From an uncultured Pseudomonadota bacterium (lineage in GTDB: Bacteria > Oederibacteriota > Muellerivitia > Muellerivitales > Muellerivitaceae): DNA of 64,000 nt. The position numbers and the translations under genes were made by a program. Shown here piece after piece: positions 29,263 through 46,001 of the stretch. Where the stretch lies: contig CAWIIP010000001.1 of NCBI GenBank assembly GCA_963836235.1, positions 512,175 to 576,174 on the forward strand, read 5' to 3'. Positions within the stretch are counted from its first letter, which is position 1, and every line of letters begins with the position of its first letter. A model generated the notes under the pieces. The model was given only the letters and a program-made list of their open reading frames with translations, was not told the DNA's origin and ran no database searches.

Positions 29263-30360
29263 CTACTCCGGTAGTACGGCCTTATTGGGCCCCACATCTT
29301 GTGCTTGAGTCAATAATTTTTCAGCATTCTCAAGAAGAGAATGATGATCCTCAGCATGTTTCGGATAAGTTGAGGCGCTAATATTGAGGAAAACGGAGGG
29401 CGCATCCCCCATGATTTGCTTAAAATACTTGAAAATTCTTTTCGCAATAATTCCATAGGTGTTATTAGCGGTGTCCGGAAGGATAATTCCATACTTGTTT
29501 TGATCCAATCGACAAATCACATCCACTCGGCGAAGACTTTTGGAAAGAATTTCGGCCACTTGCGTGGCTACTTGATTTTCTTCCGATTGACTCGCCACCC
29601 CACTCACGGGCGAAACTTTCAGAAACATGAGACTCATCAACCGGGAGTACCGTTTGGCCCTTTCAACCTCAATAGAAAGACACTCAGCAAAATAGTCTTT
29701 GTTAAAAAGACGAGTCACTTCATCCACAAGGACAATGGGGCGCCGCCCATCAGTTTTAATTTCAAGAGATGGGACCGCCACAAATGGGTCCATCATCGGC
29801 GTCAAGGGGATATCTACTTTGCCAACCGTTTCATCAACAAGATGGTTGCCCTTCCCTTCTTTCGCAGTATTCACAACTTGCAATATCGCTTTTTCCAAGG
29901 GTTCTTGCCAACGTTTCCAAAGCGCGGAAAGCTCTTCCAGTGTTTTATTATCGTAAGCTTGTGAATTCTGGTGCGCACATCCAAACAATAGATAATTTTT
30001 TTTCGCCCTATTTAATACCATAAACACACCACTGTTGGGTTTTTGAATGCGAAGAGAACCCGACTTGTTAAAAACAGGTTTTCCCGTAATGTCTAAATAA
30101 GTCTTTAGGGGAAGTTTTGAAAGTGCGTTTCGCTCCTCCACTCCCAAACGATAAAGACAAGTGTCCATTACTTCTTCTTTTCCGTCCAACGCCACAATCG
30201 AAAGAGGCTCCTCAGGGCTGGCAGCACAAGCTAAAAAAACACAATCAAACTTAAGGTTTTCCAGAATATCTTTGCAGCAATTAACCAAATTTGATTGGTC
30301 GATGGGCTGTTTAGTACATCTTGAAATGAGTTGTTCAATCAAGGAACCGTTTAAAATCAC
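29263..30360 (-). CDS. Degenerate GGDEF-domain protein
   Basis: DEVTRLFNKDYF..EVERAKRY..LRRVDVICRLDQNKYGIILPDT: RxxD I-site intact, GG(D/E)EF replaced by DQNKY. Confidence 0.8.
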   Translation of the reverse strand: MILNGSLIEQLISRCTKQPIDQSNLVNCCKDILENLKFDCVFLACAASPEEPLSIVALDGKEEVMDTCLYRLGVEERNALSKLPLKTYLDITGKPVFNKSGSLRIQKPNSGVFMVLNRAKKNYLLFGCAHQNSQAYDNKTLEELSALWKRWQEPLEKAILQVVNTAKEGKGNHLVDETVGKVDIPLTPMMDPFVAVPSLEIKTDGRRPIVLVDEVTRLFNKDYFAECLSIEVERAKRYSRLMSLMFLKVSPVSGVASQSEENQVATQVAEILSKSLRRVDVICRLDQNKYGIILPDTANNTYGIIAKRIFKYFKQIMGDAPSVFLNISASTYPKHAEDHHSLLENAEKLLTQAQDVGPNKAVLPE

Positions 30361-30480
30361 AAAACCTCTTAGTCCGAAGTAATATTTAACTAATTTAGAA
30401 TCACTAAATTCGAAGAGTCTTCTCGAATCTTATATCCGAGCGATTTAAATAACTTTTAAAGAATAATAAAAACACCAATA

Positions 30481-31095
30481 TTATTTGACCTTGATCGCTT
30501 GAAAAATAGCACGCAACGAAACCGCGTCCGGTACCAAAATAAAATAACCGCCTATTTCTTTGTTGTCGTCAACAAACCTGGTTTCAATTGAAATAACTTT
30601 TGTCGCGTCATCCAAACCTTGAGTAACGGTTGCCAAGAGCGCACCGGCCATGTCAAACACCAATGTGGGAACTGAAATCAGTAACAACATTCCTAAAAAT
30701 TCGTTCAATGCGCTTAAATATGCACCTGTCAAAATATTTCCAGCTTCCTTGATTGCAGAATGTCCCATTTCAGTAAGAATCTTGCTGGAACCAATCGGTT
30801 GTTTTAAAAGCATATCCGCAAGATGAAGCGCCGAATCACGCGGGAATAAAAGAAGGATTTTCCCCGTTGCGTCTCCTAAGATAGATAAAGTAAGCCCCGC
30901 TACTAGCGTATTTGGATCTCCTACTAATTTCGGAACTTCCGATAAAGGAATAACGTTAGCTTTCGGAACAGTAATAAATATTCTTTTTCCTAAAAGCTGG
31001 GAAAGTGCTGTCGCGCCATGGCCCGCGCCAATATTTCCGACTTCCTTCATCGCATCCAGTTGAGTTGGACTTAATTCATCAAGATTGAGCAGCAT
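30481..31095 (-). CDS. cheC: CheY-P phosphatase CheC
   Basis: DAMKEVGNIGAGHGATALS and SAIKEAGNILTG (two D/S-x3-E-x2-N sites). Confidence 0.93.
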   Translation of the reverse strand: MLLNLDELSPTQLDAMKEVGNIGAGHGATALSQLLGKRIFITVPKANVIPLSEVPKLVGDPNTLVAGLTLSILGDATGKILLLFPRDSALHLADMLLKQPIGSSKILTEMGHSAIKEAGNILTGAYLSALNEFLGMLLLISVPTLVFDMAGALLATVTQGLDDATKVISIETRFVDDNKEIGGYFILVPDAVSLRAIFQAIKVK

Positions 31096-33163
31096 TTACG
31101 TCTTCCTTGTTATAAAAAGGGTGTTCAACCTTAAACCGTTTGTCCTTTAAATCTTCGATCAAGCTATTCACATCCAAGATGAGCGCTATCTTACCACTCC
31201 CAAGAATAGTTGCGCCCGAAAAACCGCGTATACCTTTCAAAATTCGATCCAATGATTTGATGGCAATTTCTTGTTGACCTATTACCTCATCCACCCGTAA
31301 ACCCACTCGGGATTCACCTACTTCAACAACAAGAACAGTCTCGAGCCCAGTCGAGTTTGTAACAGCTTGAATCGGCAATTCCAACAACTCTTGAAGTGGA
31401 TAAAGGGGAATAACATCTCCCCGTAAAACTATTGTTTCTTGTTGTTGAATTTTCTTTTTATCTTCCGGGAAAACATCAAGTGTTTCAATAATGTTGACAA
31501 CAGGTATGGCAAATATTTCATGATTGCACTTAACTAAAAGGGCCTTAATGATAGCAAGGGTAAGCGGAAACCTTAGGATAAAAGTCGTCCCTTGCCCCTT
31601 CTTGCTCAGAATTCGAAATGTTCCTCCCAAACTTTCAATCTTTGTTTTAGCGACGTCAACTCCAACGCCTCTTCCAGAAATCTCCGTAGCATTCTCAACG
31701 GTTGAAAACCCAGGTAATGCAATCAAGCGTATAGCTTCTTCGTCGGTTAATTTTGCCACATCCTCCGAAGACACGAGCCCTTTCGCAACGGATTTTTGGC
31801 GGATAACATCCGGATCTACTCCTCGACCATCATCCGAGATGGAAATAACCACGTAAGATCTTTCCCGTTTCGCTTGAAGTCGAATCGTTCCGTAACCCTC
31901 TTTTCCCTCCTTTTTTCTCTCATCGGGCGTTTCAATCCCGTGGTCGACAGCATTTCTTAAAAGGTGGACCAGTGGTTCACTCATTTCTTCCAGAACTGTC
32001 CTATCCAATTCAATTTCCGCTCCATCCATTTCCAAGTCAACTTGTTTGTTCAAGTTCTTAGCTAAATCCCTAACCATCCTAGGAAATCTTTCGAAAATTT
32101 GTTTCACCGACATCAATCGAACTTTCATGATTTCGTCTTGCAGTTCATCGGTGATGTGATTGAGTTGAGAAAGCGGATCCGATAATTCTTTTAGGGAATT
32201 GGAGGCGGCCACTTGTTCAAAACGGATTTTAGAAATGACCAATTCCTGAACTAAAGTCATTAATTTATCCAATTTCGAGGTGTGGACACGTATGGTAGGC
32301 AAAGCAATTTTTTTTTCGTCAGTAACTGTAGCCTGATCCGAAGAAGAAGGGTGAACTGTTTTAAAAGTCGGTTTCAAACCATTCTGACTCACAAATGAGG
32401 AGGAAGACCCGTTGGATTCAAAATCAGTAATTTCAACATCAACAATCTCGCCAACACTCAAAAGCGATTCTTTTACTTTTTCGGGTTTATACTCGGTCAC
32501 AATAACCAGTATAAATCGATCACCAAAATGGCCTTTTTCGACCTCTTCTGGAAGAGGGTTGCATCCGATTATTTCACCCAATTCATTTACTTTTTTTATA
32601 ACCATAAAAGCCCGAACATCTTTAAAAATGCAATTCGGGACAATTTGTACTTCTATTTTTAAAACGGAGAACCCACTCACCTTGGCTTGAGACAATATTT
32701 CTTGTTCCGATTCAGAAAAAAGCAGCGGAATCTCTGATGCCGGAACAACAGTTTCAGTCGGGTTTCCATCTGACTCGGACTGCCCTTCGAAATCGGAATG
32801 AAATAATTGAAGAACAGATTGAAGACTTTCTTCTTCAATAAAATCTTGTTCCGTTAAAACTTCAACCCATTTTTCCAACTGATCCAAGCAAATGAATAGG
32901 ACATCAACCATTCGAGTTGAAAGCTTCCGAGACCCGGCGCGAATGGGTTCTAAAACGGTTTCCATTCGATGGGTTAGCTGCACCATGGGATCGTAGCCCA
33001 TGGTGGCGGCCATTCCCTTCAGTGAATGAGCGGCGCGAAAAATATCTTGAATGGCGTCGGTTTGTGTTTGATTCTTTTCTAATAAAACCAACGAATTATT
33101 AAGTGTCGATAAATACTCGCGAGCCTCCGCTAAAAAAGCATTTTTATAATCTCCAATGTTCAC
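31079..33163 (-). CDS. cheA: Chemotaxis histidine kinase CheA
   Basis: FRAAHSLKGM (P1), P2-like domain, HLLRNAVDHGIE, SGRGVGVDV, PLTLAI, C-terminal CheW domain. Confidence 0.97.
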   Translation of the reverse strand: MNIGDYKNAFLAEAREYLSTLNNSLVLLEKNQTQTDAIQDIFRAAHSLKGMAATMGYDPMVQLTHRMETVLEPIRAGSRKLSTRMVDVLFICLDQLEKWVEVLTEQDFIEEESLQSVLQLFHSDFEGQSESDGNPTETVVPASEIPLLFSESEQEILSQAKVSGFSVLKIEVQIVPNCIFKDVRAFMVIKKVNELGEIIGCNPLPEEVEKGHFGDRFILVIVTEYKPEKVKESLLSVGEIVDVEITDFESNGSSSSFVSQNGLKPTFKTVHPSSSDQATVTDEKKIALPTIRVHTSKLDKLMTLVQELVISKIRFEQVAASNSLKELSDPLSQLNHITDELQDEIMKVRLMSVKQIFERFPRMVRDLAKNLNKQVDLEMDGAEIELDRTVLEEMSEPLVHLLRNAVDHGIETPDERKKEGKEGYGTIRLQAKRERSYVVISISDDGRGVDPDVIRQKSVAKGLVSSEDVAKLTDEEAIRLIALPGFSTVENATEISGRGVGVDVAKTKIESLGGTFRILSKKGQGTTFILRFPLTLAIIKALLVKCNHEIFAIPVVNIIETLDVFPEDKKKIQQQETIVLRGDVIPLYPLQELLELPIQAVTNSTGLETVLVVEVGESRVGLRVDEVIGQQEIAIKSLDRILKGIRGFSGATILGSGKIALILDVNSLIEDLKDKRFKVEHPFYNKEDVNAAQS

Positions 33164-33253
33164 AAGAACTCCCAATTAAACCAAAGTCCAAACCTTTTCT
33201 TCAAGTATGTTAAATTAATTAAAGAACGTCGATTAATGAAAAACTTTTGATTT

Positions 33254-34366
33254 TCACGTCGTTTCATTTTGGGCGTTCAAAAAAGTGTTGATCTGATTGG
33301 CAATTGCGGCCAGCGGCAGTTGAAGGTCTATTACCTTGGCGTCCACCGCGGATTTTGGCATGCCGTAAACGACACAACTCTCGGCATCCTGGGCAAATGT
33401 TTTTCCGCCAACTGCCTTTATACTTTTCAAACCATCTGTCCCATCTCGCCCCATTCCCGTCAATACAACGCCCAAACATTGTTTTCGAGCCACCTTTGCC
33501 ACGGAAGTCATCATTATATCCGCCGAAGGTTTCACACCCAATCGAGGAGGGGAATTATCAAAAAAAAAGCGAAATCGACCAGGTGCCCCCTCCAAAGTTA
33601 GATGGCATCCACCCGGCGCAAGATAAACCGACCCGCCTTTCAAACATCCATTTTCCACGGCTTCTGAAACACTTAGCGTGGTTACTTCCCCTAATCGGCG
33701 CGCTAACGCCTTAGTAAATCCAATTGATATGTGTTGAACGATGACAAATGCGGATGATGAATTTCCGTCGATGCCAGAAAATAACTCGTTTAAGGCTCGG
33801 GGACCTCCCGTCGAGGATGCGATTGCAACAATAAAAGTTGCCGGGTTATCCGCCTTAATTTCCGTTGAAATGATTTTTAAATGTGAATCTTTTTTTATTG
33901 AAAGCTTGGCATCGCTCTCTAAAAATAATGAGGGTTTGTACTTTGGCCTGCAAAGGGCCGCTATTTTAATTTTTTCGATCAATTCCCCTTGGATACCACG
34001 TGCGTTTTCCAAGAGCCTGCCAACCGGTTTTGCGATGCAGTCAACTGCTCCTAACTCGAGGGCTCGAATAGTCGTTTCACTTCCTTTGCCCGTATGACTT
34101 GAGAGCATGACCACGGGAGTCGGTTGTTCCCGCATAATCTTTTCGAGGGCCAACAAACCATCCATCCTTGGCATCTCAACATCCATAGTAATAACGTCGG
34201 GTTTAAGTTTTTTGGTCTTTTCAACAGCTTCCAAACCATTTTTAGCTGTATCCACAACATAGATTGATCCATTTGAATCGGCCAAAATATCTTGAAGAAT
34301 TTTTCGCATAAAATAAGAGTCGTCGACAATCAAAACTTTGATAGAAGATAATTTCTCAAGAGTCAT
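33254..34366 (-). CDS. cheB: Methylesterase response regulator CheB
   Basis: REC domain plus SSTGGP, VQH, LTGMGRDG triad, CVVYGMP. Confidence 0.96.
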   Translation of the reverse strand: MTLEKLSSIKVLIVDDSYFMRKILQDILADSNGSIYVVDTAKNGLEAVEKTKKLKPDVITMDVEMPRMDGLLALEKIMREQPTPVVMLSSHTGKGSETTIRALELGAVDCIAKPVGRLLENARGIQGELIEKIKIAALCRPKYKPSLFLESDAKLSIKKDSHLKIISTEIKADNPATFIVAIASSTGGPRALNELFSGIDGNSSSAFVIVQHISIGFTKALARRLGEVTTLSVSEAVENGCLKGGSVYLAPGGCHLTLEGAPGRFRFFFDNSPPRLGVKPSADIMMTSVAKVARKQCLGVVLTGMGRDGTDGLKSIKAVGGKTFAQDAESCVVYGMPKSAVDAKVIDLQLPLAAIANQINTFLNAQNETT

Positions 34367-34396
34367 GAAGATTTCCAAATGCCCGATACATCATTA

Positions 34397-34762
34397 TCAA
34401 GTGCCCACAACTCTTTTTAAGGCTTCGTGGACACGCGGAGGCTGAAAAGGCTTGATAATGAAATCTCGCGCTCCCGCCTGAATAGAATCGATGACCATAT
34501 TCTGCTGTCCCATCGCGCTCACCATAATGATTTTCGCTTGGGAATCAAATGCTCGAATCTCTTTAACGGCGTCAATACCGTTCATTTCAGGCATCACAAT
34601 ATCCATAGTGACAAGATCTGGTCGTAATTTCTTGTAAAGATCGACAGCATCCTTGCCGGTTCCAGCTTCGCCCACAAGTTCAAATGGTTCTTTAAGGATA
34701 ATCCCTTTCAAAACGGTTCTCATAAAAGAAGAATCATCAACAAACAATACTTTAATAGCCAA
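34397..34762 (-). CDS. cheY: CheY response regulator
   Basis: VDDSSFMR, MDIVMP, SAMGQQ, FIIKPF. Confidence 0.92.
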   Translation of the reverse strand: MAIKVLFVDDSSFMRTVLKGIILKEPFELVGEAGTGKDAVDLYKKLRPDLVTMDIVMPEMNGIDAVKEIRAFDSQAKIIMVSAMGQQNMVIDSIQAGARDFIIKPFQPPRVHEALKRVVGT

Positions 34763-34791
34763 TCGTTTTTCCTTCCCCGAAGAACTCACTT

Positions 34792-35280
34792 CTATTTTGA
34801 CAACAACCTCGCCTCATCAAAATCAAAGAGCCTCGTCAAATTTAAGAATAAAATCTGTCGGCGACCCAAAGCCAACACTTCTTTTATAAATTCAGGACCT
34901 ATATTGAGCGTCTGTTCTTTTGGACCAAAGCCCGCCAGGGCGGAACCTTTCAAAACTTCCAAAACTTTATCTACCAACAACCCCACCATTTGGCCTTCGA
35001 CCTCAACAACCAATATTCGCGATTCACTCGTTCGGTCCACAAGCGGCATATTAAAACGCCGTTTTAAATCAAGAACTGGAATAATACGACCCCGAAGATT
35101 GATGATGCCTTCCAAAAATTTGGGTGCCCTTGGCATGACCGTAATTTCCGCGACTCGAATAATTTCTAGAACGTGACCGATCTGAACGCACATCTCGGTT
35201 CCCGCAACGCAAAAAACAACCAGCTGAGTTTCGTTGTCAGGCTGAGAGCTTTTCGGAATTTCGGACAATGACATACTCAA
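34792..35280 (-). CDS. cheW: CheW
   Basis: GIINLRGRIIPVLDL, VGLLVDKV. Confidence 0.93.
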   Translation of the reverse strand: MSMSLSEIPKSSQPDNETQLVVFCVAGTEMCVQIGHVLEIIRVAEITVMPRAPKFLEGIINLRGRIIPVLDLKRRFNMPLVDRTSESRILVVEVEGQMVGLLVDKVLEVLKGSALAGFGPKEQTLNIGPEFIKEVLALGRRQILFLNLTRLFDFDEARLLSK

Positions 35281-35293: not shown

Positions 35294-35779
35294 TTAAACC
35301 CATTCGGACAATTGATTTAATTTTCGAATTTCAACCCGGCCAGACGCAATATCAAAAATTACCGTTCGTCCCTGCCCTCCCCCGACTTGTTCCGCCAAAA
35401 TAGGTATGCCTCGTTCCTGCAACTTTTCCCGAACCGCAGAAACATTACGCAAACCTATAGGGATCGGATTCTGAGATATTGAAGAAAACATATTTGCGCC
35501 GCCAACAATTTTTGAAAAGAGATCCATTTGATGACATCCCAAACTTTCCATTTCCGACACAAGGACGTCAATCGCGGTATCTGCAAACTTACCCGGAGTT
35601 GCCTTCTGGGTATAAAGACGACTCGAGGGAAGCATGATGTGGGCTAGCCCGCCAACTTTAGCCCGAAGATCATAAAGTATAACGCCCACACAAGAGCCCA
35701 AACCATAAGCCATCAGCTTTTTCGGGCTGTGGGTTACTTTATATTCGGCAATTCCAACAACCAGCGTTTCCTCAGCCAT
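35294..35779 (-). CDS. cheD: Chemoreceptor glutamine deamidase CheD
   Basis: GLGSCVG, GGLAHIMLP, KFAD, GGANMF, IGLRN. Confidence 0.95.
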   Translation of the reverse strand: MAEETLVVGIAEYKVTHSPKKLMAYGLGSCVGVILYDLRAKVGGLAHIMLPSSRLYTQKATPGKFADTAIDVLVSEMESLGCHQMDLFSKIVGGANMFSSISQNPIPIGLRNVSAVREKLQERGIPILAEQVGGGQGRTVIFDIASGRVEIRKLNQLSEWV

Positions 35780-36410: not shown

Positions 36411-36460
36411 GAGCGCCCATCCACAAAAATTTACCGACATGATCGTAAAACACCAACAAG

Positions 36461-36823
36461 TTAGCCCAAAGCTTTTTTGACCGCCTCCAAAACATTTGAA
36501 GGCTGGAAAGGCTTGACAATAAAGTCCTTGGCGCCCGCTTGAATTGCTTCGACTACCAGGGATTGTTGACCCATCGAACTGCACATAAGAATTTTCGCGG
36601 AGGGATTCACTTTTATGATTTCACGCACGGCATCAATCCCACCCATTTCGGGCATGATAATATCCATAATAGTTAAATCCGGTTTCAAATTTTTATATTG
36701 TTCAACCGCTTTAGCCCCATTTTCAGCCTCACCAATGATTTCGTATCCCGAACCCACTAAAATATTTTTCAGCATCATTCTCATAAATGACGCGTCATCA
36801 ACGAGCATAACTCGATGGGCCAC
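36461..36823 (-). CDS. cheY: CheY response regulator
   Basis: VDDASFMR, MDIIMP, SSMGQQ, DFIVKPF. Confidence 0.93.
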   Translation of the reverse strand: MAHRVMLVDDASFMRMMLKNILVGSGYEIIGEAENGAKAVEQYKNLKPDLTIMDIIMPEMGGIDAVREIIKVNPSAKILMCSSMGQQSLVVEAIQAGAKDFIVKPFQPSNVLEAVKKALG

Positions 36824-37295: not shown

Positions 37296-39515
37296 TTATT
37301 TGATCAATTTAGACTTGTCAGCGCTCGGGGAAATCTGCAGTTCCTTTTTCCAAACTTGAATCTGCTGAAGCATATCAATGGACTGAATCACCTTTTCCTC
37401 TTCCGGATTAGGTGAATCCATATATTTTTGGAACTCAACAACCGCCTCGTCCCACCAACTTTTAAATCGATAGACTTGCCCCAAGTGGAAATGTATCTCG
37501 TTTAGTTCTGGTTTAAGTTCCTGTGCTTTTTTAAGTTCGACGAGAGCTTCGTCCCACCATTTACGTCGAATGTAAACCTTGCCTAATTGCAAATGAGCGT
37601 CGGGAAATTGCGGGTCACAGGACACGGCTCTCGCTAAAACCTTCACGGCCTCATCCAATGTTTCCATGTTCAAATAGACTTCACCCAAATTGGTAAGGGC
37701 TTCGCGATTTTTCGGAACCAACCGAACCGTTTCTTGGAATTCCCTTACGGCTTCCAAATATTGTCCGGTGTTTTTATAAAGAAGCCCTAAGTTGAAATGA
37801 AGGGAGGGATTTTCAGGATCGGCCATAATCTGCTTAATCAATGCTTCCGACGCCTCAGACAAGACATTTTTTTTCTTCAGAGCGACTGCCAAATTATTTT
37901 GCGCCGTCTTATAAGCCGGGTCAATTTCAACGGCTTTTTTAAATGCCTCAATGGCTTTCTCATACTGACTCATCTTAAAATAAACGACTCCCAAATTATT
38001 GTAAGCTTTCGCGTATTGAGGGTTCAGCTTGATGGCTTTTTGGTAATGTCCTATTGATTCCGGGATCATTCCGGCGTTCTTATAGGCAACGCCCAAACTG
38101 TTGTGAATGATCGGATTTTGTGGATCAAATTCCATGGCTTTTTTATATTCCGCGATAGCTTCCTCAAATCGTCCCTTATCGGCCAAAGCCAACCCCAGAT
38201 AAGTCAAAGCTTCCGCGCTGGAGGCGATCGAAACATTTAATTCAATGGCCTGGGATATCTCTCGAATCGCTTCATCATAAAGATTCACTTTGTAATAATA
38301 AACGCCAAGGTAATAATGCGCCTCGGCATTTTGCGGATCGATCTCCAAAGCTTCTCGCACTTGCTGCGTCGCTTTCTCGCTCTCGCCCATTTTAAAGTAA
38401 GTGACACCCAACTCAAAATGGCCCATGCTGGATCCCGGTGAAATTTCAATGGCGGTTAAAAATTGTTTCGCGGCTTGGTCGGCCCGGTTAAGTTCCCGCA
38501 AAGCGATCCCGGTTTGGATATAGTTTTCAACATTCCTCGGAGCCAATTCAATCGCTTTTTGGGAAGCCGCCAATGAATCCTCCAACATTCCCTTCATGAG
38601 ATAGATTTCCCCCAATGCGCGATATAACTTTTCATGCCCGGGGACAGCCTCGATAGCCCGCTTATATTCCCGAATAGCCTCATCTAACAAGCCTTTCCCT
38701 TTATAAGCCGAAGCGAGGCTCAAATAAGTATCAACTCCGTTGTTGTCGACGGGAAGTGCGGCCACTTTCTCCGCAACCCGTTCTTCCATTGTTTTAGATC
38801 TTTCAATCGCCAAAAGAGCTTGGGAGCCTTGTCCAAAATTCGGATTTAAATCCACGGCTTTTTTGAATTCTCTTTCGGCTTCTTCAATCATGTTTTTATC
38901 GCCGTAAACAAAGCTTAAGTTGTAATGGGCGATGGCATAATCAGGATTAAGGGAAATGGCCTTTTTAAATTCAATTAAAGCCTCGTTTATCATTGCCTTT
39001 TTGTAGTAAACCTCGCCCAAATTATTATGCAGGTCGGCAAAAAAAGGATTTTTTTCAATGGCCTTACGAAATTCGGCTAAAGCCTCGTCGAATTTGCCCA
39101 TACATTTATTGGCTATCCCCAAATAATTCCTGGCAAAAGGATGGTCGGGATTTAATTGGAGGCATTTTCGATATTCCTCAACCGCTTTTTCATATTGACC
39201 CGTATAGCGATAAGCATTTGCCAGGTTGTAATAAGTCTCGGAGTCTTGAGGAAACATTTGGACGGATTTTTTGTAAGCTTCTATCGATCTGTCATAAAGA
39301 CCCGTATGACGATTTACGGCCTTTAAGTTTTCTTGGGCTTGATGATTCTCCGGGTCAACTTCCAAGGCCGTTTTAAATTCCTTTATGGCCTCGGCATACA
39401 TACCCTTCGAATAATAAAATACACCCAAATTATTGTGGGTGGACGCGTCTCCCTGATCGCTACCATTGGCAAGTTCACGAATGGTTTTTGTTTCAGGTCG
39501 GGTAGGCATAACCAA
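37296..39515 (-). CDS. Large all-TPR protein
   Basis: Continuous 34-aa repeats (HNNLGxxY...AIxEFxKAIELxP) over ~740 aa; no other domain recognised. Confidence 0.92.
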   Translation of the reverse strand: MVMPTRPETKTIRELANGSDQGDASTHNNLGVFYYSKGMYAEAIKEFKTALEVDPENHQAQENLKAVNRHTGLYDRSIEAYKKSVQMFPQDSETYYNLANAYRYTGQYEKAVEEYRKCLQLNPDHPFARNYLGIANKCMGKFDEALAEFRKAIEKNPFFADLHNNLGEVYYKKAMINEALIEFKKAISLNPDYAIAHYNLSFVYGDKNMIEEAEREFKKAVDLNPNFGQGSQALLAIERSKTMEERVAEKVAALPVDNNGVDTYLSLASAYKGKGLLDEAIREYKRAIEAVPGHEKLYRALGEIYLMKGMLEDSLAASQKAIELAPRNVENYIQTGIALRELNRADQAAKQFLTAIEISPGSSMGHFELGVTYFKMGESEKATQQVREALEIDPQNAEAHYYLGVYYYKVNLYDEAIREISQAIELNVSIASSAEALTYLGLALADKGRFEEAIAEYKKAMEFDPQNPIIHNSLGVAYKNAGMIPESIGHYQKAIKLNPQYAKAYNNLGVVYFKMSQYEKAIEAFKKAVEIDPAYKTAQNNLAVALKKKNVLSEASEALIKQIMADPENPSLHFNLGLLYKNTGQYLEAVREFQETVRLVPKNREALTNLGEVYLNMETLDEAVKVLARAVSCDPQFPDAHLQLGKVYIRRKWWDEALVELKKAQELKPELNEIHFHLGQVYRFKSWWDEAVVEFQKYMDSPNPEEEKVIQSIDMLQQIQVWKKELQISPSADKSKLIK

Positions 39516-40131
39516 CCTCGGGCGGCGGAAGTAAGAAGTTGTTGTCGTCGATCAATTTGTCGGGATTGAGAATGGAATAAAGTTCTTCCTTTATTTTACC
39601 CAAGCAATAATACAAATCGTTTTTTTTGCCAAACAAGTAGGAAGGCAGGGGTTCAATTTGCTCAATCTTAAATCGGGCCACTTCTTTTACCTGATCAACC
39701 CATAAAATAAAGGGTTTCCCTTTCTTTTCCAAAACCACAAACCAAGTGCCAACCAATTTTTGAATCTGCTCAATTTCGAGAAAAGCTCGAAAAGATAGAA
39801 CGGGAATGTTTTTACCCCGCAAAACGAACGTTCCTTTCCAGGGGCCGGTTGACTCTTCCAACAATTGAAAGGGAGCGTATTTTAAAACTTCGCGAATTCG
39901 AAAAGTCTCAATCCCATACCATTCGTTTTCCACGCGAAAGGTCAAAACCATCATACCCTGCATCACTTGCAAGATGTCTTGCTCTTCGACAAACCCCAGC
40001 TTCACGAGGACTTTCCCTATCGGTTCGTGAGTTTTTTTTTGTTCGCCCAAAGCTACTTGGATTTGACGGAAAGTGATTTTCCCAGCCTGGCGAAGAAGTT
40101 CACCCAAAGATTTTTCTTGAGGTTTCATCAT
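39493..40131 (-). CDS. CheW-like protein with N-terminal MshEN-like tandem motif
   Basis: SLGELLRQAGKITFRQIQVALGEQ-KKTHE-PIGKVLVKLGFV followed by VLTFRV..YGI..IREV..GTFVLRGKNIPVLS..LWVDQV. Confidence 0.82.
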   Translation of the reverse strand: MMKPQEKSLGELLRQAGKITFRQIQVALGEQKKTHEPIGKVLVKLGFVEEQDILQVMQGMMVLTFRVENEWYGIETFRIREVLKYAPFQLLEESTGPWKGTFVLRGKNIPVLSFRAFLEIEQIQKLVGTWFVVLEKKGKPFILWVDQVKEVARFKIEQIEPLPSYLFGKKNDLYYCLGKIKEELYSILNPDKLIDDNNFLLPPPEVGYAYPT

Positions 40132-40135
40132 GGAA

Positions 40136-41308
40136 CTAGTTTCCCCGTACTATTTTCAGATTGTTCTTCAAAATATCATTTGTGGGGTCAAGTTCCAACG
40201 CCTTCTCCCAATGGGTGACGGCTTTTTGTTTGTCCCCTTTTTTCATGTAAATATTCCCCAATTTTGACTGGGCATCCAGGTGCGACGGATTCAAAGTCAA
40301 AAGCCTCTCAAACTCAACAACCGCTTCGTCAAAATTCCCCTGTTTATAGCTCAAATTTCCCAAATTATCCAAAACCTGAATGTCGTTTGGATTAATGATT
40401 TTAGCCGCCTTGTATTCCTCCCGCGCCCGCTGAAGGTCACCTTGTTTGTCATAAATGTAACCCAAAACGTTGTGAACACTGGCATCATGAGGATTAATCT
40501 CCATAACCTTTTTATACATTTGAATGGCTTCTTCGTGCTGACCCCTCCCCGCGTAAATCATCCCCAATTTCAAATAAACTTCCGCATTGTTCGGATTTTT
40601 TTCTTTCGCGTGTCTCAGAATCTCCAAAGCCTTTTCGTATTGGCCCAATGACATATAGGCTTGGCCCAGTTTGAGGTGAACCTCCGGCTCGTGGGGATTT
40701 ATCTTCACCGCCTGAAGATATTGGACAATGGCCTCATTGTATTTGCCGGTTTTTAAATAAGCGTTCCCCAGAATAGCGTAAACTGCCGCGTGCCGTGGAT
40801 TGGTGATCAGGGCGCGTTCGTAATAAAAGATCGCTTCCTCCAGCTGGCCGGCCTGCTCAAAGGCATACCCTAATTTAAAGTAAATTTCGGCGTTACTTTG
40901 ATTTATGGCGATATATTTCCGGTATTCTATGATCGCCTCTTGGTACCTCCCCATTTTAGAAAAAACATTACCAAGATTATTATAAAGTCCAACATCGCCA
41001 GGATTTAATTCAACGGATTTTTGAAATTCCACAACAGCTTCCGGATATTTGCCCTGCACTTCCAAAAGAAGGCCCAATTTGCAGTGGGCATTCAAATTCA
41101 TTTGGTTTATTTCAAGGGAGCGGCGGTAATAGTCCTCCGCCTGGCTATAATTACCAACATTGGTGCAGAGACCACCCAACTGAAATAGAATCTCCCCATC
41201 CGAAGGGCTCAATTCCAAAGCCCGTTTAAACTCAACGATGGCGTCATCGTACCGGCGAGAGAGAGAAAAAGCCGTTCCCAAATTTATATGCTCTTGGGCC
41301 TTATCCAT
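40136..41308 (-). CDS. All-TPR protein
   Basis: About 11 consecutive TPR repeats. Confidence 0.92.
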   Translation of the reverse strand: MDKAQEHINLGTAFSLSRRYDDAIVEFKRALELSPSDGEILFQLGGLCTNVGNYSQAEDYYRRSLEINQMNLNAHCKLGLLLEVQGKYPEAVVEFQKSVELNPGDVGLYNNLGNVFSKMGRYQEAIIEYRKYIAINQSNAEIYFKLGYAFEQAGQLEEAIFYYERALITNPRHAAVYAILGNAYLKTGKYNEAIVQYLQAVKINPHEPEVHLKLGQAYMSLGQYEKALEILRHAKEKNPNNAEVYLKLGMIYAGRGQHEEAIQMYKKVMEINPHDASVHNVLGYIYDKQGDLQRAREEYKAAKIINPNDIQVLDNLGNLSYKQGNFDEAVVEFERLLTLNPSHLDAQSKLGNIYMKKGDKQKAVTHWEKALELDPTNDILKNNLKIVRGN

Positions 41309-42158
41309 TTTCGGCCTTTCCCAAATCCAACTCGTGTTTTAATTCGAGGTTCTGGTAAATTCGGTGTTTAACATCCACGCAATTAAAATATTTTCGGGCT
41401 GGGCCGAGAAGCGTTTCCGTAAGGCCCAGCACGAGAAATCCTCCAGGTTTTAGCGCCTTTGAAAACCGTTCATAAATTTTTTGTTGCTGGTTTCCGGTGA
41501 GGTATATCAGAAGATTTCGACAGAAAATAAGATCAAAATCCTCAAACACGGGCATCCACTTTCCGAGCAAGTCATGCACTCTAAACCGGACATGCTTTTT
41601 TAACTCAACGGAAACAGAGAGTTTCGTCCCATCGGAACGGAACCACCTGGTCTTCCATCCCTTGGGAATCTTTGACATGGAGTCCTGGGAATATTCCCCT
41701 CTTTCAGCGACACCAATGCATTTGGGATCAATGTCGGTGGCAAAAATTTCGAAAGAACAATCATGTTCCGAAGAAAGGGATTCCGCCAAAATCCCCGCGA
41801 TCGAATAGGGCTCCTCACCCGTGCTGCAACCAGCGCACCAAATTTTAATTTTTTTAGGCGGCACTTTTAAAATGCTCAGAAGTATCTTCTCTTGAACTGC
41901 TTTGAAAACACCCGGATCACGAAAAAATTCAGTCACGTGAATGGTAAGCCGATCCAAAAGCTGGGAACACTCTTGTGGATTGCCTTGAAGCGTTTTCAAA
42001 TAACCCGTATAAGTCGATACGTCCATCGCCCTCATTCGAACAGCGATGCGGCGTTTAATATAATTCGTTTTATAGTGGTTTCCGTCAAAACCTTTCGAAT
42101 TAAAAAGAAAAGCCAATATTTTTTGAAAACTAGGATCTTCCTCTATCATCACAGTCAT
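41301..42158 (-). CDS. cheR: Chemotaxis methyltransferase CheR
   Basis: TEFFRD, IWCAGCSTGEEPYS, ATDID, FDLIFCRNLLIY. Confidence 0.96.
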   Translation of the reverse strand: MTVMIEEDPSFQKILAFLFNSKGFDGNHYKTNYIKRRIAVRMRAMDVSTYTGYLKTLQGNPQECSQLLDRLTIHVTEFFRDPGVFKAVQEKILLSILKVPPKKIKIWCAGCSTGEEPYSIAGILAESLSSEHDCSFEIFATDIDPKCIGVAERGEYSQDSMSKIPKGWKTRWFRSDGTKLSVSVELKKHVRFRVHDLLGKWMPVFEDFDLIFCRNLLIYLTGNQQQKIYERFSKALKPGGFLVLGLTETLLGPARKYFNCVDVKHRIYQNLELKHELDLGKAENG

Positions 42159-42188
42159 TAGAGTTTCCTCTTGGAGTCAGAAGGCCTC

Positions 42189-43265
42189 CTACGGTTGGTA
42201 AACAGCCTCAAAACTTTTTTCGATGGATTCATTGTTACTAACAATTTGCGCCGTTGAATAATTAAGCCCCGCAAAAATGACTTGGGCGACACCGCGCAGG
42301 GCGTGAAGCGGCTCTTCCATTGCCCCCGTGCTGGTAATTTCCCGAACTTCAAATTTTTGTCCCTCCACAACACCCGCTTTTGTGCCGGCAGAAAGATAAA
42401 TGAAATCGGTTTGTTCATAATTCTGGTGACTCGAATCGCCCCCAAGAACAAAACATTTAATCGAATGGGAAGGAAGCTCTTTTTTTATTTGAGCCTGTTT
42501 CCATCTTTTAGTTTCATTGTCATACGTCTCTACGCGGTCACCATTGTGGATAGCGCCAAAGGATTGGGTTATTTCAACAAGCATTCGTCTCCTTTGGAGT
42601 TCAATCACCTTGATGATGGCAAGATTTTCGACCCGATATCCAAGAGTTGCGGAATTCGTCTCGTGCATAGGGCGATCCGCTCGATAAACGACCAATAAGT
42701 CGCCGGGTTCGATTTTCGTCTGATCCGACGACAGCTCAATGTAGGTTCTCTCAGGAGAGGTGAAAAGTTGCTCATTACCGGGGTTCCCGATCACTTTACC
42801 AATGGAGTGAATCTGGGAAGGATCCGAGACCAAAAAACCAGCCGAAACAAAATAATAAAACCCTACTTTGTCGCTGATTCGAACCCTTTGACGAGAAGTT
42901 TCAATCGGATTTTTTCGCAAATCACTTTTTGTTTGACTTTCCTCGGGAAGAGTTGAAGAGGTAGGCGTCGCCAAAGGCGCTTTTTTTACCGTTTGGGTCG
43001 GACTCATTTGTGGAGTTGGTGAAGGAAAGGGCGAAGCCTTATCGCTTGCTTCGGCTTTCTCAAGATTCCCTTTCATCGTTTGGTTGTTTTGGGGAGTCGC
43101 CTGAGGTGTTACCGTTTTTGACACCGGAGTGGCTACCAAGGAAATGTCGTCATCCTCGTTTTCCACTTCAACTGTCGTCGCCCACAAACGGCCTCCGGTC
43201 GCCAACACAAAAATGGCCACCAGGAATACAAAAGGGGATGTTGCACATCGAAGCTTAATGGGCAT
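42189..43265 (-). CDS. Periplasmic TsaP-like protein (two FlgT-C-like beta domains, no LysM)
   Basis: Signal peptide, Thr/Pro-rich linker, then GFL..IGKVIG..YIEL..GDLLVVYR..LGY..IKVI..ITQSFGAIHNGDRV and IYLSAG..GVVEGQKFEV..STAQIV. Confidence 0.6.
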   Translation of the reverse strand: MPIKLRCATSPFVFLVAIFVLATGGRLWATTVEVENEDDDISLVATPVSKTVTPQATPQNNQTMKGNLEKAEASDKASPFPSPTPQMSPTQTVKKAPLATPTSSTLPEESQTKSDLRKNPIETSRQRVRISDKVGFYYFVSAGFLVSDPSQIHSIGKVIGNPGNEQLFTSPERTYIELSSDQTKIEPGDLLVVYRADRPMHETNSATLGYRVENLAIIKVIELQRRRMLVEITQSFGAIHNGDRVETYDNETKRWKQAQIKKELPSHSIKCFVLGGDSSHQNYEQTDFIYLSAGTKAGVVEGQKFEVREITSTGAMEEPLHALRGVAQVIFAGLNYSTAQIVSNNESIEKSFEAVYQP

Positions 43266-43662
43266 AATTCACCTCATCATAAAGTTGTTTTGCTTTAGCC
43301 TGCCACTCTTCTTGACTCGAATATTGATCCATAATGATATCCAAATAAGGAAGCGCTTGTTTTTTAATCCCCACAATATAAGTTCCATTCGCCAAGTTAG
43401 AAGCCACATGATAAAGCGCGGGCGCGCACAAATCCGCCCTTTCCGGATATTGCTGGTACAACTGTAAATAAACAGCCGATGCCTTATCGTCACTCCCGAG
43501 TAAATCGCACCACCGAGCCGTATCATAAAGGACATCGGGAGCGCTGGGATCCTTTGGATTGGCCGCTACCCAAGACGTAAACTGATCCGCGACCATCGAA
43601 GTGTTCAAAACAACGATAAATATCAAAATTAATAAACCAGCCCCAATCATCAAGCCTTTCAT
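43255..43662 (-). CDS. Small membrane-anchored TPR-like protein
   Basis: N-terminal TM, APDVLYDTARW, LYQQYP, ALYHVA helical repeats. Confidence 0.6.
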   Translation of the reverse strand: MKGLMIGAGLLILIFIVVLNTSMVADQFTSWVAANPKDPSAPDVLYDTARWCDLLGSDDKASAVYLQLYQQYPERADLCAPALYHVASNLANGTYIVGIKKQALPYLDIIMDQYSSQEEWQAKAKQLYDEVNYAH

Positions 43663-43697
43663 TTTTTCCCCTTTTTAAATCAAAAACAATTATGCGA

Positions 43698-46001
43698 TCA
43701 ACTTATTTTCGAGAATATCCCGCTCAAAGTATTTTTTTTAATCTTCGCCTCTTCGATGCGCTTTTGCGCCCTTTCATTCGACGGTTCCAAGTCCAGAATC
43801 TGGGTCCAAATTCGGACGGCTCGGTCCATGTCATTCGCGTCGAAATATTGTTTGCCCTCAGCGTAAATTTTTTCAATGTTTTGATTGATGGACGCCTTCA
43901 ATACCGCCAATTGCTTAAGGGCATCCGGATGGCCAGGAGAAAGCCGGATGACTTTCGTAAACTCCTTTTGGGCCGCCGCCAACTCTCCCGATTGTTGGGC
44001 TCGCACTCCGTCTTGGAAAAAATCACTGATCTGCTGTTCCAACATTTGGCCCGACTTTTGAAGATAAGCGTTTAAGTAGGTATTTCCATCGGCCTTCGCG
44101 ATGGCTTTCTTGAAAAAATCAATGGCCGTTTGGAAATCGCTGCGGACATAACTACGGACGCCTTGTTCAAAGAGATTTAAAATCAGTTGTTTTTCCGGAT
44201 TAATATCCACCCCATCCACGCCGAAAGACAAAAGTTTCGTGATTCCCTGTTGCAGATAACGGGCGACATCCTCCAATTCGGAATTGAGTTCGTAGGCTTT
44301 ATTCCAAGCCACCAAGGCACCCAGCAAATCTCCCGCTTTATATAGCTCAATGGCCGACTGGTTGAGGGTATCGGCCTTGGCGCGGGCCTGTTCTTTTTGA
44401 ACGGCTGTTTTCAGGCCCCCCTGCAAAACCTTGACCTGTTCATTTTCCGGGTCCAAGACCAGCGCTTGGTCCACGAAAGATAAGGCACCGGCCAAGTCAT
44501 TTTGATTTTGGGCGTTCAAAGCCGCTTGATAAAATTCCCTGGCTTTGGTCCGGTTGTCCAGCTCCCCCTGAATGGCCTTGATATAGCCTTGGGCCTGCTT
44601 GTTTTCCGGGTCAATTTCGAGGACCTTTTGAAACTCAAGTATCGCCGCCTGATGCTTGCCTTCCCGGTAAAGTTGCAAACCCGTTTTGACGTTGCTCGAC
44701 GCGTCTTTTTTCTTTTCGGTCTTATCATCCATCTCCCGCAACTTGGCCATTAAAGCGTTGGCTTCCTTATGTTCCGGCATTTCCGAAAGCACGCGCTTCA
44801 GTTCTCCCCGGGCTTCATCGTACCGGCGTTTGTCATAGTACTCCTGCGCCTTTTTGAGCCAACCGGTAACCCGGTCTTTTTGCTGGGCGTTTTCCATTTG
44901 GGAAATCAAGGACTGGGCCGAGGCTTTCGAGGAAGATATCCCCTTCAGGCCCAAATCAATTTCACTGGGTGAGGTAGCCTGCTCCATGGCGCTTTCTTTG
45001 GTGATAAAACCGCCCCGCACCAACTCAATCAAGGATTGGTCGAAAGTTTGCATGCCATATTGGCTGTGGCCTTCCGCGATAAATTGGCGGATGGATGAAA
45101 TTTTGCCCTCGGCGATCAAGGACTTGATGGTCTGGGTCACGATCATGATTTCACAGGCCGGTACCACCCCAACGCCGTCGGCTTTATTGACCAATCTTTG
45201 GGAAACAACCGCCCTCAAAGTGCCCGACAATTGGACACGAATTTGATTTTGTTGTTCCGGGGGGAAAAAATCCAAAATGCGCTCAATGGTCTGGATCGTG
45301 TCCATCGTGTGAAGGGTCGACAAAACCAAATGGCCCGTTTCCGCGGCTGAGATGGCCGCTTGAACCGTTTCGACGTCGCGCATCTCACCGATCAGGATGA
45401 TATCCGGGTCCTGCCGCAGCACATACTTGAGCGCCGATTTGAAACTGTCCGTATCAAGGCCGACTTCCCTCTGCGTCACGCTGGATTTTTTGTCCGGATG
45501 GACAAACTCAATGGGGTCCTCAACGGTGACAATGTGGGCCGCTCGGTTGACATTCATTTCATTGATGAGAGAGGCCAAAGTGGTTGATTTTCCCGACCCC
45601 GTAATCCCGGTCACCAGGATAAGTCCGCGTTGCTCCATCGCGATTTGTTTAAGAATTGCCGTCGGCATATTAATGTCTTCAATTTTCGGAATCCGCTGCG
45701 GGATGACGCGCATGATGATTTCGGGCAGGCCCCTTTGCCACATGGCGTTGGTCCTAAAACGGGCCAAGCCTTCCACGGCATAGGCCAAATCCACCTCTTT
45801 GTGCTCCTCAAAAAAGAGTCTCTGTTGTTTTTCGTCCATGAGATAGGAAGCGACCTCCGCCAGTTCTTGAGGTGTCAGGGGAGTTTCACTTTGGGGGTTT
45901 AAATCACCGTCAATACGAAAAAGCGGGGGGGCACCGGCCTTCAAGTGCACATCGGAGGCCTTTTTTTCAACCATGGAATAAAGGAGCTGCTGAAGATCCA
46001 T
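43698..46001 (-). CDS. pilT: PilT/PilU-family retraction ATPase fused to a ~400-aa C-terminal TPR array
   Basis: ASDVHL, Walker A GITGSGKST, TVEDPIE, LRQDPDIILIGEMRD, TGHLVLSTLH, GMQTFDQ; TPR repeats after residue ~375. Confidence 0.9.
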   Translation of the reverse strand: MDLQQLLYSMVEKKASDVHLKAGAPPLFRIDGDLNPQSETPLTPQELAEVASYLMDEKQQRLFFEEHKEVDLAYAVEGLARFRTNAMWQRGLPEIIMRVIPQRIPKIEDINMPTAILKQIAMEQRGLILVTGITGSGKSTTLASLINEMNVNRAAHIVTVEDPIEFVHPDKKSSVTQREVGLDTDSFKSALKYVLRQDPDIILIGEMRDVETVQAAISAAETGHLVLSTLHTMDTIQTIERILDFFPPEQQNQIRVQLSGTLRAVVSQRLVNKADGVGVVPACEIMIVTQTIKSLIAEGKISSIRQFIAEGHSQYGMQTFDQSLIELVRGGFITKESAMEQATSPSEIDLGLKGISSSKASAQSLISQMENAQQKDRVTGWLKKAQEYYDKRRYDEARGELKRVLSEMPEHKEANALMAKLREMDDKTEKKKDASSNVKTGLQLYREGKHQAAILEFQKVLEIDPENKQAQGYIKAIQGELDNRTKAREFYQAALNAQNQNDLAGALSFVDQALVLDPENEQVKVLQGGLKTAVQKEQARAKADTLNQSAIELYKAGDLLGALVAWNKAYELNSELEDVARYLQQGITKLLSFGVDGVDINPEKQLILNLFEQGVRSYVRSDFQTAIDFFKKAIAKADGNTYLNAYLQKSGQMLEQQISDFFQDGVRAQQSGELAAAQKEFTKVIRLSPGHPDALKQLAVLKASINQNIEKIYAEGKQYFDANDMDRAVRIWTQILDLEPSNERAQKRIEEAKIKKNTLSGIFSKIS

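Follow-up and report, generated by a model that had tools for sequence, protein, structure and literature searches.

A chemosensory operon with an F1-like core and a conserved accessory module of P-II, MshEN-CheW and TPR proteins in FCPU426/Goldbacteria

Introduction

Chemosensory systems fall into 19 classes, and the output is unknown for most of the non-model ones, according to excerpts of PMC9321776, the introduction of which adds that the F classes mostly steer flagella. The class table of that paper (PMC9321776, S1) lists CheC together with CheD for F1 alone, along with 44H receptors, which the F9 class also uses; it assigns to the type IV pilus (Tfp) class a CheA that combines REC with 5-6 Hpt domains, 40H receptors and the gene order YYWMRABW, and to the alternative cellular function (ACF) class a CheA-REC and a fusion of CheR to tetratricopeptide repeats (TPRs). 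Here we describe a locus at positions 29263-46001 of a 64-kb stretch of contig CAWIIP010000001.1 from an uncultured bacterium (assembly GCA_963836235.1; the whole stretch is hereafter the window). Sequence comparison indicates that this locus is a chemosensory operon of probable F1 ancestry, conserved across FCPU426/Goldbacteria, with an acquired and fixed accessory module that consists of a P-II family signal protein, a CheW fused to an MshE-type cyclic di-GMP (c-di-GMP) domain (MshEN-CheW) and two large TPR proteins (TPR390 and TPR739). A chemosensory operon with an F1-like core is a known kind of system; the variant with the accessory module is undescribed in the literature searched.

Results

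Gene content of the locus

The locus comprises 17 tightly packed genes, all on the minus strand, as are all long open reading frames (ORFs) in the interval; by ORF coordinates, consecutive listed ORFs range from overlapping to separated by at most about 120 nt. Pfam and NCBIfam scans, complemented by family profiles, bear out gene by gene the co-oriented 17-gene run, in the order that an initial annotation of this DNA had claimed. From the head of the cluster the genes are as follows.

43698..46001, minus strand: PilT-TPR, 767 aa, a PilT/PilU-family retraction-type ATPase with C-terminal TPRs (TIGR01420, PF00437, TPR families)
43255..43662, minus strand: small membrane-anchored BamD/CpoB-like TPR protein, 135 aa (family profile; TIGR02795 below cut-off)
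42189..43265, minus strand: TsaP-like envelope protein without LysM, 358 aa (family profile and Foldseek search of an AlphaFold2 model)
41301..42158, minus strand: CheR methyltransferase, 285 aa (PF01739, 5.1e-56; PF03705, 6.7e-11)
40136..41308, minus strand: TPR390, stand-alone TPR protein, 390 aa, ~11 repeats (TPR_1 and TPR_2, 11 stretches each)
39493..40131, minus strand: MshEN-CheW, 212 aa (NF053729, 54.9 bits, cut-off 38; PF01584, 2.4e-23)
37296..39515, minus strand: TPR739, large TPR protein, 739 aa (TPR_11, 15 stretches)
36945..37283, minus strand: P-II family signal protein, 112 aa (PF00543, 4.9e-26, 91.5 bits against 25)
36461..36853, minus strand: CheY1, single-domain response regulator, probably starting near 36823 (PF00072, 4.6e-30)
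35772..36584, minus strand: CheC1, CheY-P phosphatase family (PF04509, 1.1e-16; NF041093 CheC_Thtogales, 4.3e-44, below cut-off)
35294..35815, minus strand: CheD, receptor deamidase family (PF03975, 1.8e-31; NF010015, 5.8e-49, below cut-off)
34792..35280, minus strand: CheW, ordinary adaptor (PF01584, 8.4e-30)
34397..34789, minus strand: CheY2, single-domain response regulator (PF00072, 6.5e-30)
33254..34378, minus strand: CheB, REC plus methylesterase (NF001965, 393.5 bits against a cut-off of 293; PF01339, 3e-57; PF00072)
31079..33175, minus strand: CheA, five-domain kinase without REC (five Pfam domains in order)
30481..31095, minus strand: CheC2, CheY-P phosphatase family (PF04509, 9.9e-22, 2 stretches; NF041093, 2e-49, below cut-off)
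29263..30360, minus strand: degenerate GGDEF protein with the I-site kept and a GAF-like N-terminal part (PF00990, 2.9e-15, residues 211-359)

The chemosensory genes proper thus have the order R-TPR-W-TPR-PII-Y-C-D-W-Y-B-A-C, with no methyl-accepting chemotaxis protein (MCP) inside. The absence of MCP and flagellar genes from the window, likewise noted in the initial annotation, is corroborated by family scans of ORFs of at least 110 aa, which detect neither kind of family in the 64 kb, and by a tblastn search (1e-6) with the MCP of a relative, which gives no match in the window. The CheC1 ORF as listed is over-long and overlaps CheY1; given that the CheC1 ORFs of relatives are mostly ~210-220 aa long (range 158-273), the real start is probably near 36410. 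The coordinates of CheR and TPR390 overlap by 8 nt, and on this arrangement TPR390 is predicted to be translationally coupled to CheR. Counts of promoter-like sites (22, as compared with 27.5 +/- 5.2 in shuffles) and of terminator-like sites (33, as compared with 25.6 +/- 5.7) in the interval 28000-47900 are uninformative on the limits of the operon.

Conservation of gene order in related loci

A genome scan with an alignment of MshEN-CheW, which is encoded in the middle of the locus, identified 32 related loci. About 20 kb was seen for each of these, and their genes were called by similarity to the window proteins; a word-indexed search with MshEN-CheW reached only relatives at least 53% identical, and the distant tier of loci comes from the genome scan. 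By label, 14 of the loci belong to candidate division FCPU426, 13 to a 'bacterium', three are proteobacterial, one is Candidatus Goldbacteria and one Methylomirabilis sp.; the FCPU426 16S cluster has been placed within Goldbacteria (PMC7031533, in excerpts).

CheR, TPR390 and MshEN-CheW are collinear in 32/32 loci, with TPR390 always after CheR and 36-88% identical to its window counterpart. TPR739 and, always just after it, P-II follow in 28 of the 32 loci, including those where MshEN-CheW is only 30-36% identical; the remaining four are two contig ends (L013, L025) and two loci (L028, L029) that stop after MshEN-CheW. Wherever the contig reaches, P-II is followed by CheY-CheC-CheD-CheW-CheY-CheB. 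Even in the distant tier, in which MshEN-CheW shows 30-36% identity, TPR739 is 41-47% identical over its full length and TPR390 36-46%, next to 39-46% for CheR and 42-46% for CheB; the two large TPR proteins are as conserved as the CheR and CheB enzymes. The recurrence of this gene order in 32 loci from other genomes places the arrangement beyond chance, and the conservation of the accessory module across a candidate phylum marks it as a real, selected arrangement. Linkage of P-II, the TPR proteins and MshEN-CheW to the che genes had been set as a test before the relatives were compared, and it is present in the related loci.

Around this shared stretch, four layouts can be distinguished. Type A (window-like) loci contain a 782-aa TPR protein (TPR782), a TMEM260-like protein, PilT-TPR, the small TPR protein, the TsaP-like protein, the core, CheA, CheC2 and the degenerate GGDEF protein. 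In type B loci (L027, L030, L031), the small TPR and TsaP-like genes are followed by a gene for an HD_5 (HD-GYP-type) protein that immediately precedes CheR; the core then contains an MCP gene, inserted between CheD and CheW, and is followed by CheA and CheC2. Type C loci (L021, L023, L024, L026, L032) contain the core alone: the TsaP-like gene is missing, and CheB is not followed by CheA. In type D (L028, L029), the small TPR protein, the TsaP-like protein, CheR, TPR390 and MshEN-CheW are followed by unrelated genes.

Several peculiarities of individual loci deserve mention. In the type C locus L021 (3-6003), genes for a 1082-aa DUF7619 protein, a 199-aa HAMP-only protein and a 698-aa TPR protein lie ahead of CheR, and an epimerase and recA follow CheB in place of CheA, such that the kinase is either encoded elsewhere or the layout works differently. 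In L001, the closest relative (84% identity in MshEN-CheW), the CheA gene is broken up into four ORFs (109, 94, 305 and 215 aa; 16951-19046), reflecting either frameshifts from assembly errors or a decaying gene. L029, labelled Methylomirabilis sp., has its genes in the same order as the Goldbacteria locus L028, and both resemble the L031 orthologues to a similar extent (37-45%); furthermore, L001, L004 and L006 are labelled proteobacterial and yet are 75-84% identical to the window. These mismatches between label and synteny are probably binning or labelling issues.

Class assignment of the chemosensory core

The core set is complete and includes CheA, CheW, two CheYs, CheB, CheR, CheD and two CheCs. 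CheA consists of Hpt (residues 11-103), P2 (172-250), dimerisation (294-352), HATPase (400-539) and CheW (545-675) domains, and PF00072 is absent. Among solved structures it scores 356 bits to PDB 3ja6_C and 354.8 bits to 1b3q_A, both of which we take to be CheA of Thermotoga maritima, and 308.8 bits to 6s1k_A, presumably from Escherichia coli; its best NCBIfam match is CheA_Halo (518 bits, below cut-off). Similarly, the best NCBIfam match of CheY1 is CheY_Halo (134.7 bits, below the cut-off of 200). CheY1 is 84-98% identical within the window clade, and in the orthologue alignments its residues D9, D10, D54, S82 and K104 are invariant, as are the phospho-acceptor residues of CheY2. These two CheY-like regulators presumably parallel PilG and PilH of the Pil-Chp system. 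CheR, CheB and CheD all produce full-length family matches, that of CheB above the NCBIfam cut-off.

The F1-like character suggested in the initial annotation holds up: CheC occurs together with CheD, and CheA has one Hpt domain and no REC domain, as set against the class table (PMC9321776, S1). Judged by gene content and CheA architecture, the core appears to be F1-like and not F1 outright. Features shared with F1 systems, that is, those of the Thermotoga maritima/Bacillus subtilis/archaeal type, are the pair of CheC and CheD, the five-domain CheA, free CheYs, CheB and CheR, along with the best solved CheA relative (3ja6/1b3q) and the alignment of the relatives' MCP to the long receptor 2ch7. 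In contrast to F1, four genes here (TPR390, MshEN-CheW, TPR739 and P-II) are listed for no tabulated class, and there are two CheYs, two CheCs, pilus genes at the head of the cluster and no in-locus receptor.

With one Hpt domain and no REC domain on CheA, the Tfp and ACF classes each fail a defining feature. The locus resembles Tfp (Pil-Chp of Pseudomonas aeruginosa) and Frz (Myxococcus xanthus) systems in that the che cluster is physically tied to type IV pilus proteins, and in that CheR has a TPR partner, as in FrzF (PMC3447774, section 13). However, the Tfp traits of the class table, from the multi-Hpt CheA with REC to the 40H receptors and the YYWMRABW order, are all lacking here, and CheC and CheD are unlisted for Tfp; the single-Hpt CheA without REC, the different gene order and the absence of an in-cluster MCP set the locus apart from this class. 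The CheA without REC and the absence of a CheR-TPR fusion likewise set it apart from the ACF class. CheR itself has no TPR match, and the separate 390-aa TPR gene that overlaps its end resembles a split form, not a fusion, recalling in this respect the CheR-TPR fusions of ACF systems and FrzF (PMC3447774, in excerpts).

P-II and the TPR proteins

The P-II protein aligns without gaps over 112 residues to the P-II protein of PDB 2eg1 (121 bits). Among 16 orthologues, residues G27, T29, G35, G37, T83, G84, D88, G89, K90, R101 and R103 are invariant, and at least 90% of the sequences retain R85 and G87; of these, we take T83, G84, R85, G87, D88-G89-K90, R101 and R103 to be the nucleotide-binding residues. 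Sensing of ATP/ADP by this protein is likely on these grounds. The T-loop varies from tier to tier; the window clade has Y51, and the window protein carries the substitutions R38->Y, Y46->V and K58->R. Sensing of 2-oxoglutarate is uncertain because Q39 and K58, presumably the ligands of this metabolite, are substituted in orthologues. The protein is akin to GlnB/GlnK in its gap-free 112-residue match and invariant nucleotide-binding loop residues but, in contrast to them, is encoded inside a che operon beside a TPR gene and not with glnA, amtB or nif genes. As far as titles and the opening parts of abstracts tell, the literature found on GlnB/P-II together with CheA or CheW contains no account of a P-II gene inside a che cluster.

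TPR390 and TPR739 are almost pure TPR arrays, and TPR739, which has no visible signal peptide, is presumed to be cytoplasmic. TPR proteins such as SgmX reportedly act on pili (PMC7519303).

MshEN-CheW and other c-di-GMP-related proteins

MshEN is a c-di-GMP receptor domain, described for MshE of Vibrio cholerae, with a motif that consists of two copies of RLGxx(L/V/I)(L/V/I)xxG(L/V/I)(L/V/I)xxxxLxxxLxxQ, 24 residues each, separated by a 5-residue spacer (PMC5013675, in excerpts). In MshEN-CheW, an MshE-type N-terminal domain at residues 9-57 precedes a CheW domain at residues 62-196. The N-terminus of the family profile matches MshE (5htl, 7e-10), the PilF chains annotated as 'c-di-GMP binding domain' (8pfa and 8pdk, ~5e-8) and PilB N-termini, and the structural model (predicted local distance difference test, pLDDT, 83.5) shows four helices followed by a beta-barrel. 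MshEN-CheW retains the spacing of the motif together with 4/4 glycines, its leucine positions and the first of the two glutamines, and the QEKSLGELL block is invariant across tiers. Binding of c-di-GMP is plausible because the NF053729 score is above the cut-off and the domain is nearly invariant across tiers.

In an exhaustive profile search, 916 proteins match MshEN-CheW at E<=1e-30. Of the best 150 matches, 146 are proteins with multiple CheW domains that align only from profile position 52 onward, and only P0147, P0267, P0308 and P0218 align in a single stretch starting from the MshEN part. Whereas fusions of MshEN to CheA and CheX are mentioned in section 12 of PMC5013675, the partner here is CheW, which is unnamed in those parts of its main text. 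No description of an MshEN-CheW fusion was found in the main texts of papers that mention both MshEN and CheW.

The last gene of the locus adds to the c-di-GMP theme. In an alignment to a solved cyclase, 'RLDQNKY' takes the place of 'RYGGDEF', and RRVD occupies the position of the RxxD I-site. Among orthologues, the GG(D/E)EF signature is replaced by DQNKY, SPNQY or EKDKY in 4/4 sequences that reach the motif, and RRVD, located five residues upstream, is kept in the same 4/4, such that the GGDEF domain is indeed degenerate, as initially annotated, and the protein is a candidate c-di-GMP receptor. Atlas feature matches of its N-terminal part to GAF clusters (0.92-0.93) provide a lead only. The gene follows CheC2 in 10 of the 11 loci that extend at least 500 nt past CheC2, the exception being L019. 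Elsewhere in the window, a 141-aa PilZ-domain protein (13977-14402, minus strand; PF07238, 3.4e-10) is encoded beside the ompH/lpx cluster and is a further possible c-di-GMP receptor.

Pilus-linked genes at the head of the cluster

PilT-TPR matches TIGR01420 over residues 3-347 with 468.9 bits (cut-off 319.1) and PDB 5fl3, 'pili retraction protein PilT', with 378.6 bits; TPR matches then extend from ~363 to 750, over ~400 residues. The columns that we take to be the Walker A/B, Asp-box and His-box motifs are invariant in 23 sequences from both tiers. Among the matches listed, there are at least 46 full-length clusters (758-771 aa) with 66-92% identity, plus a 739-aa partial one, and at least 24 of the 120 matches listed are 41-44% identical and of the same length of ~766 aa, including one from Candidatus Goldbacteria. 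PilT-TPR is present at full length in all type A loci (15/15) whose sequence extends 4.5 kb or more beyond the upstream side of CheR, and a partial copy lies at the contig end of L009. No description of a PilT-TPR fusion was found among 12 of the 17 papers that bring together PilT, TPR and chemosensory terms. A complex prediction for PilT-TPR with CheY1 scored 0.00, relative to a mark of 0.32, which counts neither for nor against binding.

The small TPR protein has a hydrophobic N-terminal anchor, as read from the sequence, and its family profile matches BamD (9n2d_F, 1.3e-6) and CpoB (6g5s_A, 3.4e-4). It also matches TIGR02795 (2.7e-7, below cut-off), and the orthologue L031:4893-5288 matches PF13525 YfiO (2.2e-8).

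The TsaP-like protein consists of a signal or anchor sequence, a Pro/Thr-rich linker and a beta-rich C-terminal part. As a single sequence it reaches TsaP at E=0.0062 and no Pfam or NCBIfam family; a profile of 18 orthologues, in comparison, matches TsaP 3jc8_Ta (from M. xanthus) at 5e-19 over ~210 residues and 6ve2_O (TsaP in the P. aeruginosa PilQ-TsaP complex) at 2.4e-6. The AlphaFold2 model has a pLDDT of 76, mostly at least 90 from residue 130, with residues 27-122 disordered; in Foldseek its sole PDB match at E<=0.001 is again 6ve2_O (E 5.5e-5, probability 1.00, TMt 0.65). Thus, both profile and fold identify C-terminal TsaP domains. In contrast to TsaP itself, a long Pro/Thr-rich linker stands in place of the LysM peptidoglycan-binding domain (no Pfam or NCBIfam match to LysM at E<=0.01), and there is no pilQ nearby in the window. 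Nor were pilB, pilC, pilM-pilQ or pilin genes found in the 64 kb. The TsaP-like gene is present in all type A loci (17/17) that have 800 nt or more of upstream sequence and in 5/10 distant loci; altogether, 22 full or partial copies and a fragment in L008 directly precede CheR.

The pilus link of the cluster is real but graded. The initial annotation had inferred that an F1-like module was repurposed to control pilus retraction. The type IV pilus connection is supported by the TsaP-like protein, by PilT and by the MshEN domain, a kind that also occurs on pilus ATPases; control of retraction is a possibility suggested by gene adjacency.

Two more genes lie directly upstream of PilT-TPR (46095-50187, minus strand): one for a 573-aa TMEM260-like protein (PF11028), a putative O-mannosyltransferase, and one for the 782-aa protein with C-terminal TPRs. 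They recur in 13 and 12, respectively, of the 15 type A loci with a full PilT-TPR and are absent from the distant-tier loci. Both may belong to the same unit, with a role, for example, in envelope or pilin glycosylation.

Receptors in related loci

An MCP gene lies between CheD and CheW in three of the 27 related loci that span this junction, namely the type B loci L027 (9459-10724), L030 (14690-15964) and L031 (14669-15982). The encoded proteins are 421-437 aa long (PF00015, ~1e-44). Their N-terminal part is short, with one hydrophobic stretch and a region that can be aligned to the HAMP domain of Tsr, and a periplasmic domain is minimal or lacking. Used as a tblastn query at 1e-6, a type B MCP finds no match in type A loci either. 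Residues 142-429 of the L031 protein align nearly without gaps to residues 14-308 of 2ch7, as opposed to the alignment with Tsr, which needs a 14-residue insertion. This fit to a long, 44H-like receptor, judged by alignment, is only suggestive because F9 receptors are also of the 44H type.

Other features of the window

Outside the chemosensory locus, the window contains an lpx/lpt envelope cluster, a SprA-like protein of the type IX secretion system (T9SS), housekeeping genes and a restriction/toxin-antitoxin island. The SprA-like ORF (2-4534, minus strand) is open-ended at 1511 aa, runs off the window and matches the T9SS family Sov/SprA (TIGR04189, 237 bits; cut-off 200). Together with an LpxC-FabZ fusion (10921-12258), it forms an FCB-like envelope gene set, although the relatives carry the label FCPU426. 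Two overlapping ORFs of 294 and 173 aa (18254-19593, minus strand) both belong to the EamA transporter family and may represent one frameshifted or split gene. An IS30-like transposase is encoded at 15807-16787. The island (52171-63835) comprises two PIN-domain genes, a RES-domain gene, a MazF/PemK toxin gene and a type I restriction system with its R subunit at 56333-58651, a RhuM-family gene and its S subunit at 59695-60882; GC content swings between 0.44 and 0.57 along it.

Discussion

The presence of a TsaP homologue in three of the four layouts, the fixation of PilT-TPR in type A and the lack of any flagellar gene in the DNA seen all favor a pilus output. We therefore propose that, in the window clade, the target of phosphorylated CheY (CheY-P) is type IV pilus dynamics; we give this pilus-linked reading, for which the evidence is the genomic neighborhood, an even chance of being correct. 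Under this proposal, receptors encoded elsewhere (in some relatives, within the cluster) would form arrays with CheA through the two adaptors, and c-di-GMP bound to MshEN-CheW and to the I-site of the GGDEF protein would tune the coupling or the assembly of the array. P-II would report ATP/ADP status, and perhaps 2-oxoglutarate, to the TPR scaffold. CheA would phosphorylate both CheYs and CheB, whereas CheC and CheD would reset the signal and mature or adapt the receptors. Finally, in the window clade, CheY-P would act on type IV pilus dynamics through PilT-TPR, with the TsaP-like and BamD-like proteins located at the secretin.

Several observations weigh against this proposal. Gene order is what connects CheY to PilT-TPR, and PilT-TPR is found in 0/8 distant loci with 6.1-8.0 kb upstream of CheR and hence lies outside the conserved core. 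The five type C loci have no TsaP-like gene and, like L020, show no CheA after CheB. The predicted inputs are affected as well. In P-II, Q39 is kept in the window clade and replaced by H in the type C loci L021, L023 and L026, and position 58 is mostly R among the orthologues. MshEN-CheW departs from the MshEN motif at four positions (R9->S, I19->K, R38->P and Q61->M), and changes at I19, R38 and Q61 are among those of a non-binding MshEN homologue (PMC5013675, in excerpts). With respect to the output, F-class systems usually steer flagella, and the legend of Fig. 4 in PMC7031533 contrasts Goldbacteria with sister clades without flagellar genes, which implies that Goldbacteria possess such genes. 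No account of pili or chemotaxis was found in the portions of the FCPU426 literature examined.

The strongest competing explanation is that the locus is an ordinary flagellar F1 operon with lineage-specific regulators, in which PilT-TPR and the TsaP-like protein are mere neighbors, co-transcribed at most, and CheY-P acts on FliM. The F1 traits of CheC/CheD, of CheA and of the relatives' MCP point in this direction, as does the lack of a linked PilT-TPR in the distant loci, and F1 receptors are commonly scattered in the genome. The usual output of the F classes (PMC9321776, introduction) and the flagellar genes implied for Goldbacteria (PMC7031533, Fig. 4 legend) are also in keeping with it. 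Nevertheless, we consider a flagellar output unlikely, albeit a serious contender: neither the 64-kb window nor the 32 loci contain a flagellar gene, as assessed from similarity to the window proteins and from Pfam scans of 38 further ORFs, a TsaP homologue precedes CheR in the 22 full or partial cases and the L008 fragment, and the linkage of PilT-TPR is unbroken in the window clade (15/15).

A bolder extension of the pilus-linked reading would see in this locus a new chemosensory class, with an F1-type core, P-II and a c-di-GMP-binding CheW integral to an array built on TPR scaffolds, and pilus retraction by PilT-TPR as its output. We regard this extension as doubtful at present.

It is improbable that the system has an alternative cellular function without taxis, such as c-di-GMP-dependent adhesion or pilus attachment to cellulose or exopolysaccharide, with GGDEF and HD-GYP proteins and TPR scaffolds as the effectors. 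The TPR partner attached to CheR is a hallmark of ACF systems (PMC3447774, abstract; PMC9321776, S1), and yet CheR and the TPR protein are separate genes here, and the CheA has none of the REC listed for that class. Both regulators are single-domain CheYs, unlike the multidomain regulators of ACF clusters (PMC3447774, in excerpts). Two CheW-type adaptors flank the CheR-proximal genes, and the c-di-GMP theme is conspicuous, with MshEN being a receptor domain for this messenger (PMC5013675, in excerpts), HD-GYP-type genes in three loci and the I-site GGDEF gene in 10/11; however, the GGDEF and HD-GYP genes are outside the conserved core.

CheR, CheB and CheD act on receptors, and to our knowledge MCPs are their only known substrates. 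The full-length conservation of these three enzymes thus leads us to expect a receptor substrate, and a receptor gene elsewhere in this genome is most likely. The label 'receptor-less' given in the initial annotation applies to this locus alone; that the window clade truly has no receptors, with the TPR proteins and P-II replacing MCPs as the input to CheA, is very improbable, for although no MCP is found in the window or in any window-clade locus and the TPR proteins and P-II match the enzymes in conservation, CheR, CheB and CheD are conserved at full length, the relatives L027, L030 and L031 carry an in-cluster MCP, the view covers ~20 kb per relative and 64 kb here, and FCPU426 metagenome-assembled genomes are reported to have chemoreceptors, a chemoreceptor clade having been matched to three of them (10.1101/2025.06.24.661292, preprint, in excerpts).

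What takes the locus beyond the tabulated classes is thus the P-II gene inside a che operon, the CheW with an MshE-type c-di-GMP domain and the two large, conserved TPR proteins, and all three additions are conserved across a candidate phylum that is known almost only from metagenomes. If P-II indeed feeds ATP/ADP or carbon-nitrogen status to the array, this would constitute a direct molecular link from metabolism to taxis. Similarly, if MshEN-CheW binds c-di-GMP, the messenger that governs the switch between the motile and sessile states would act at the adaptor and not at PilZ-type brakes. Should the locus prove to represent a new class, it would be the first instance of a P-II protein at work within a chemosensory array, and the first plain-CheA system of the F classes to have pili as its output. 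Furthermore, the graded linkage, in which the TsaP-like gene is widespread, PilT-TPR is confined to one clade and an in-cluster MCP occurs in some loci, offers a natural series for the rewiring of an F1 system.

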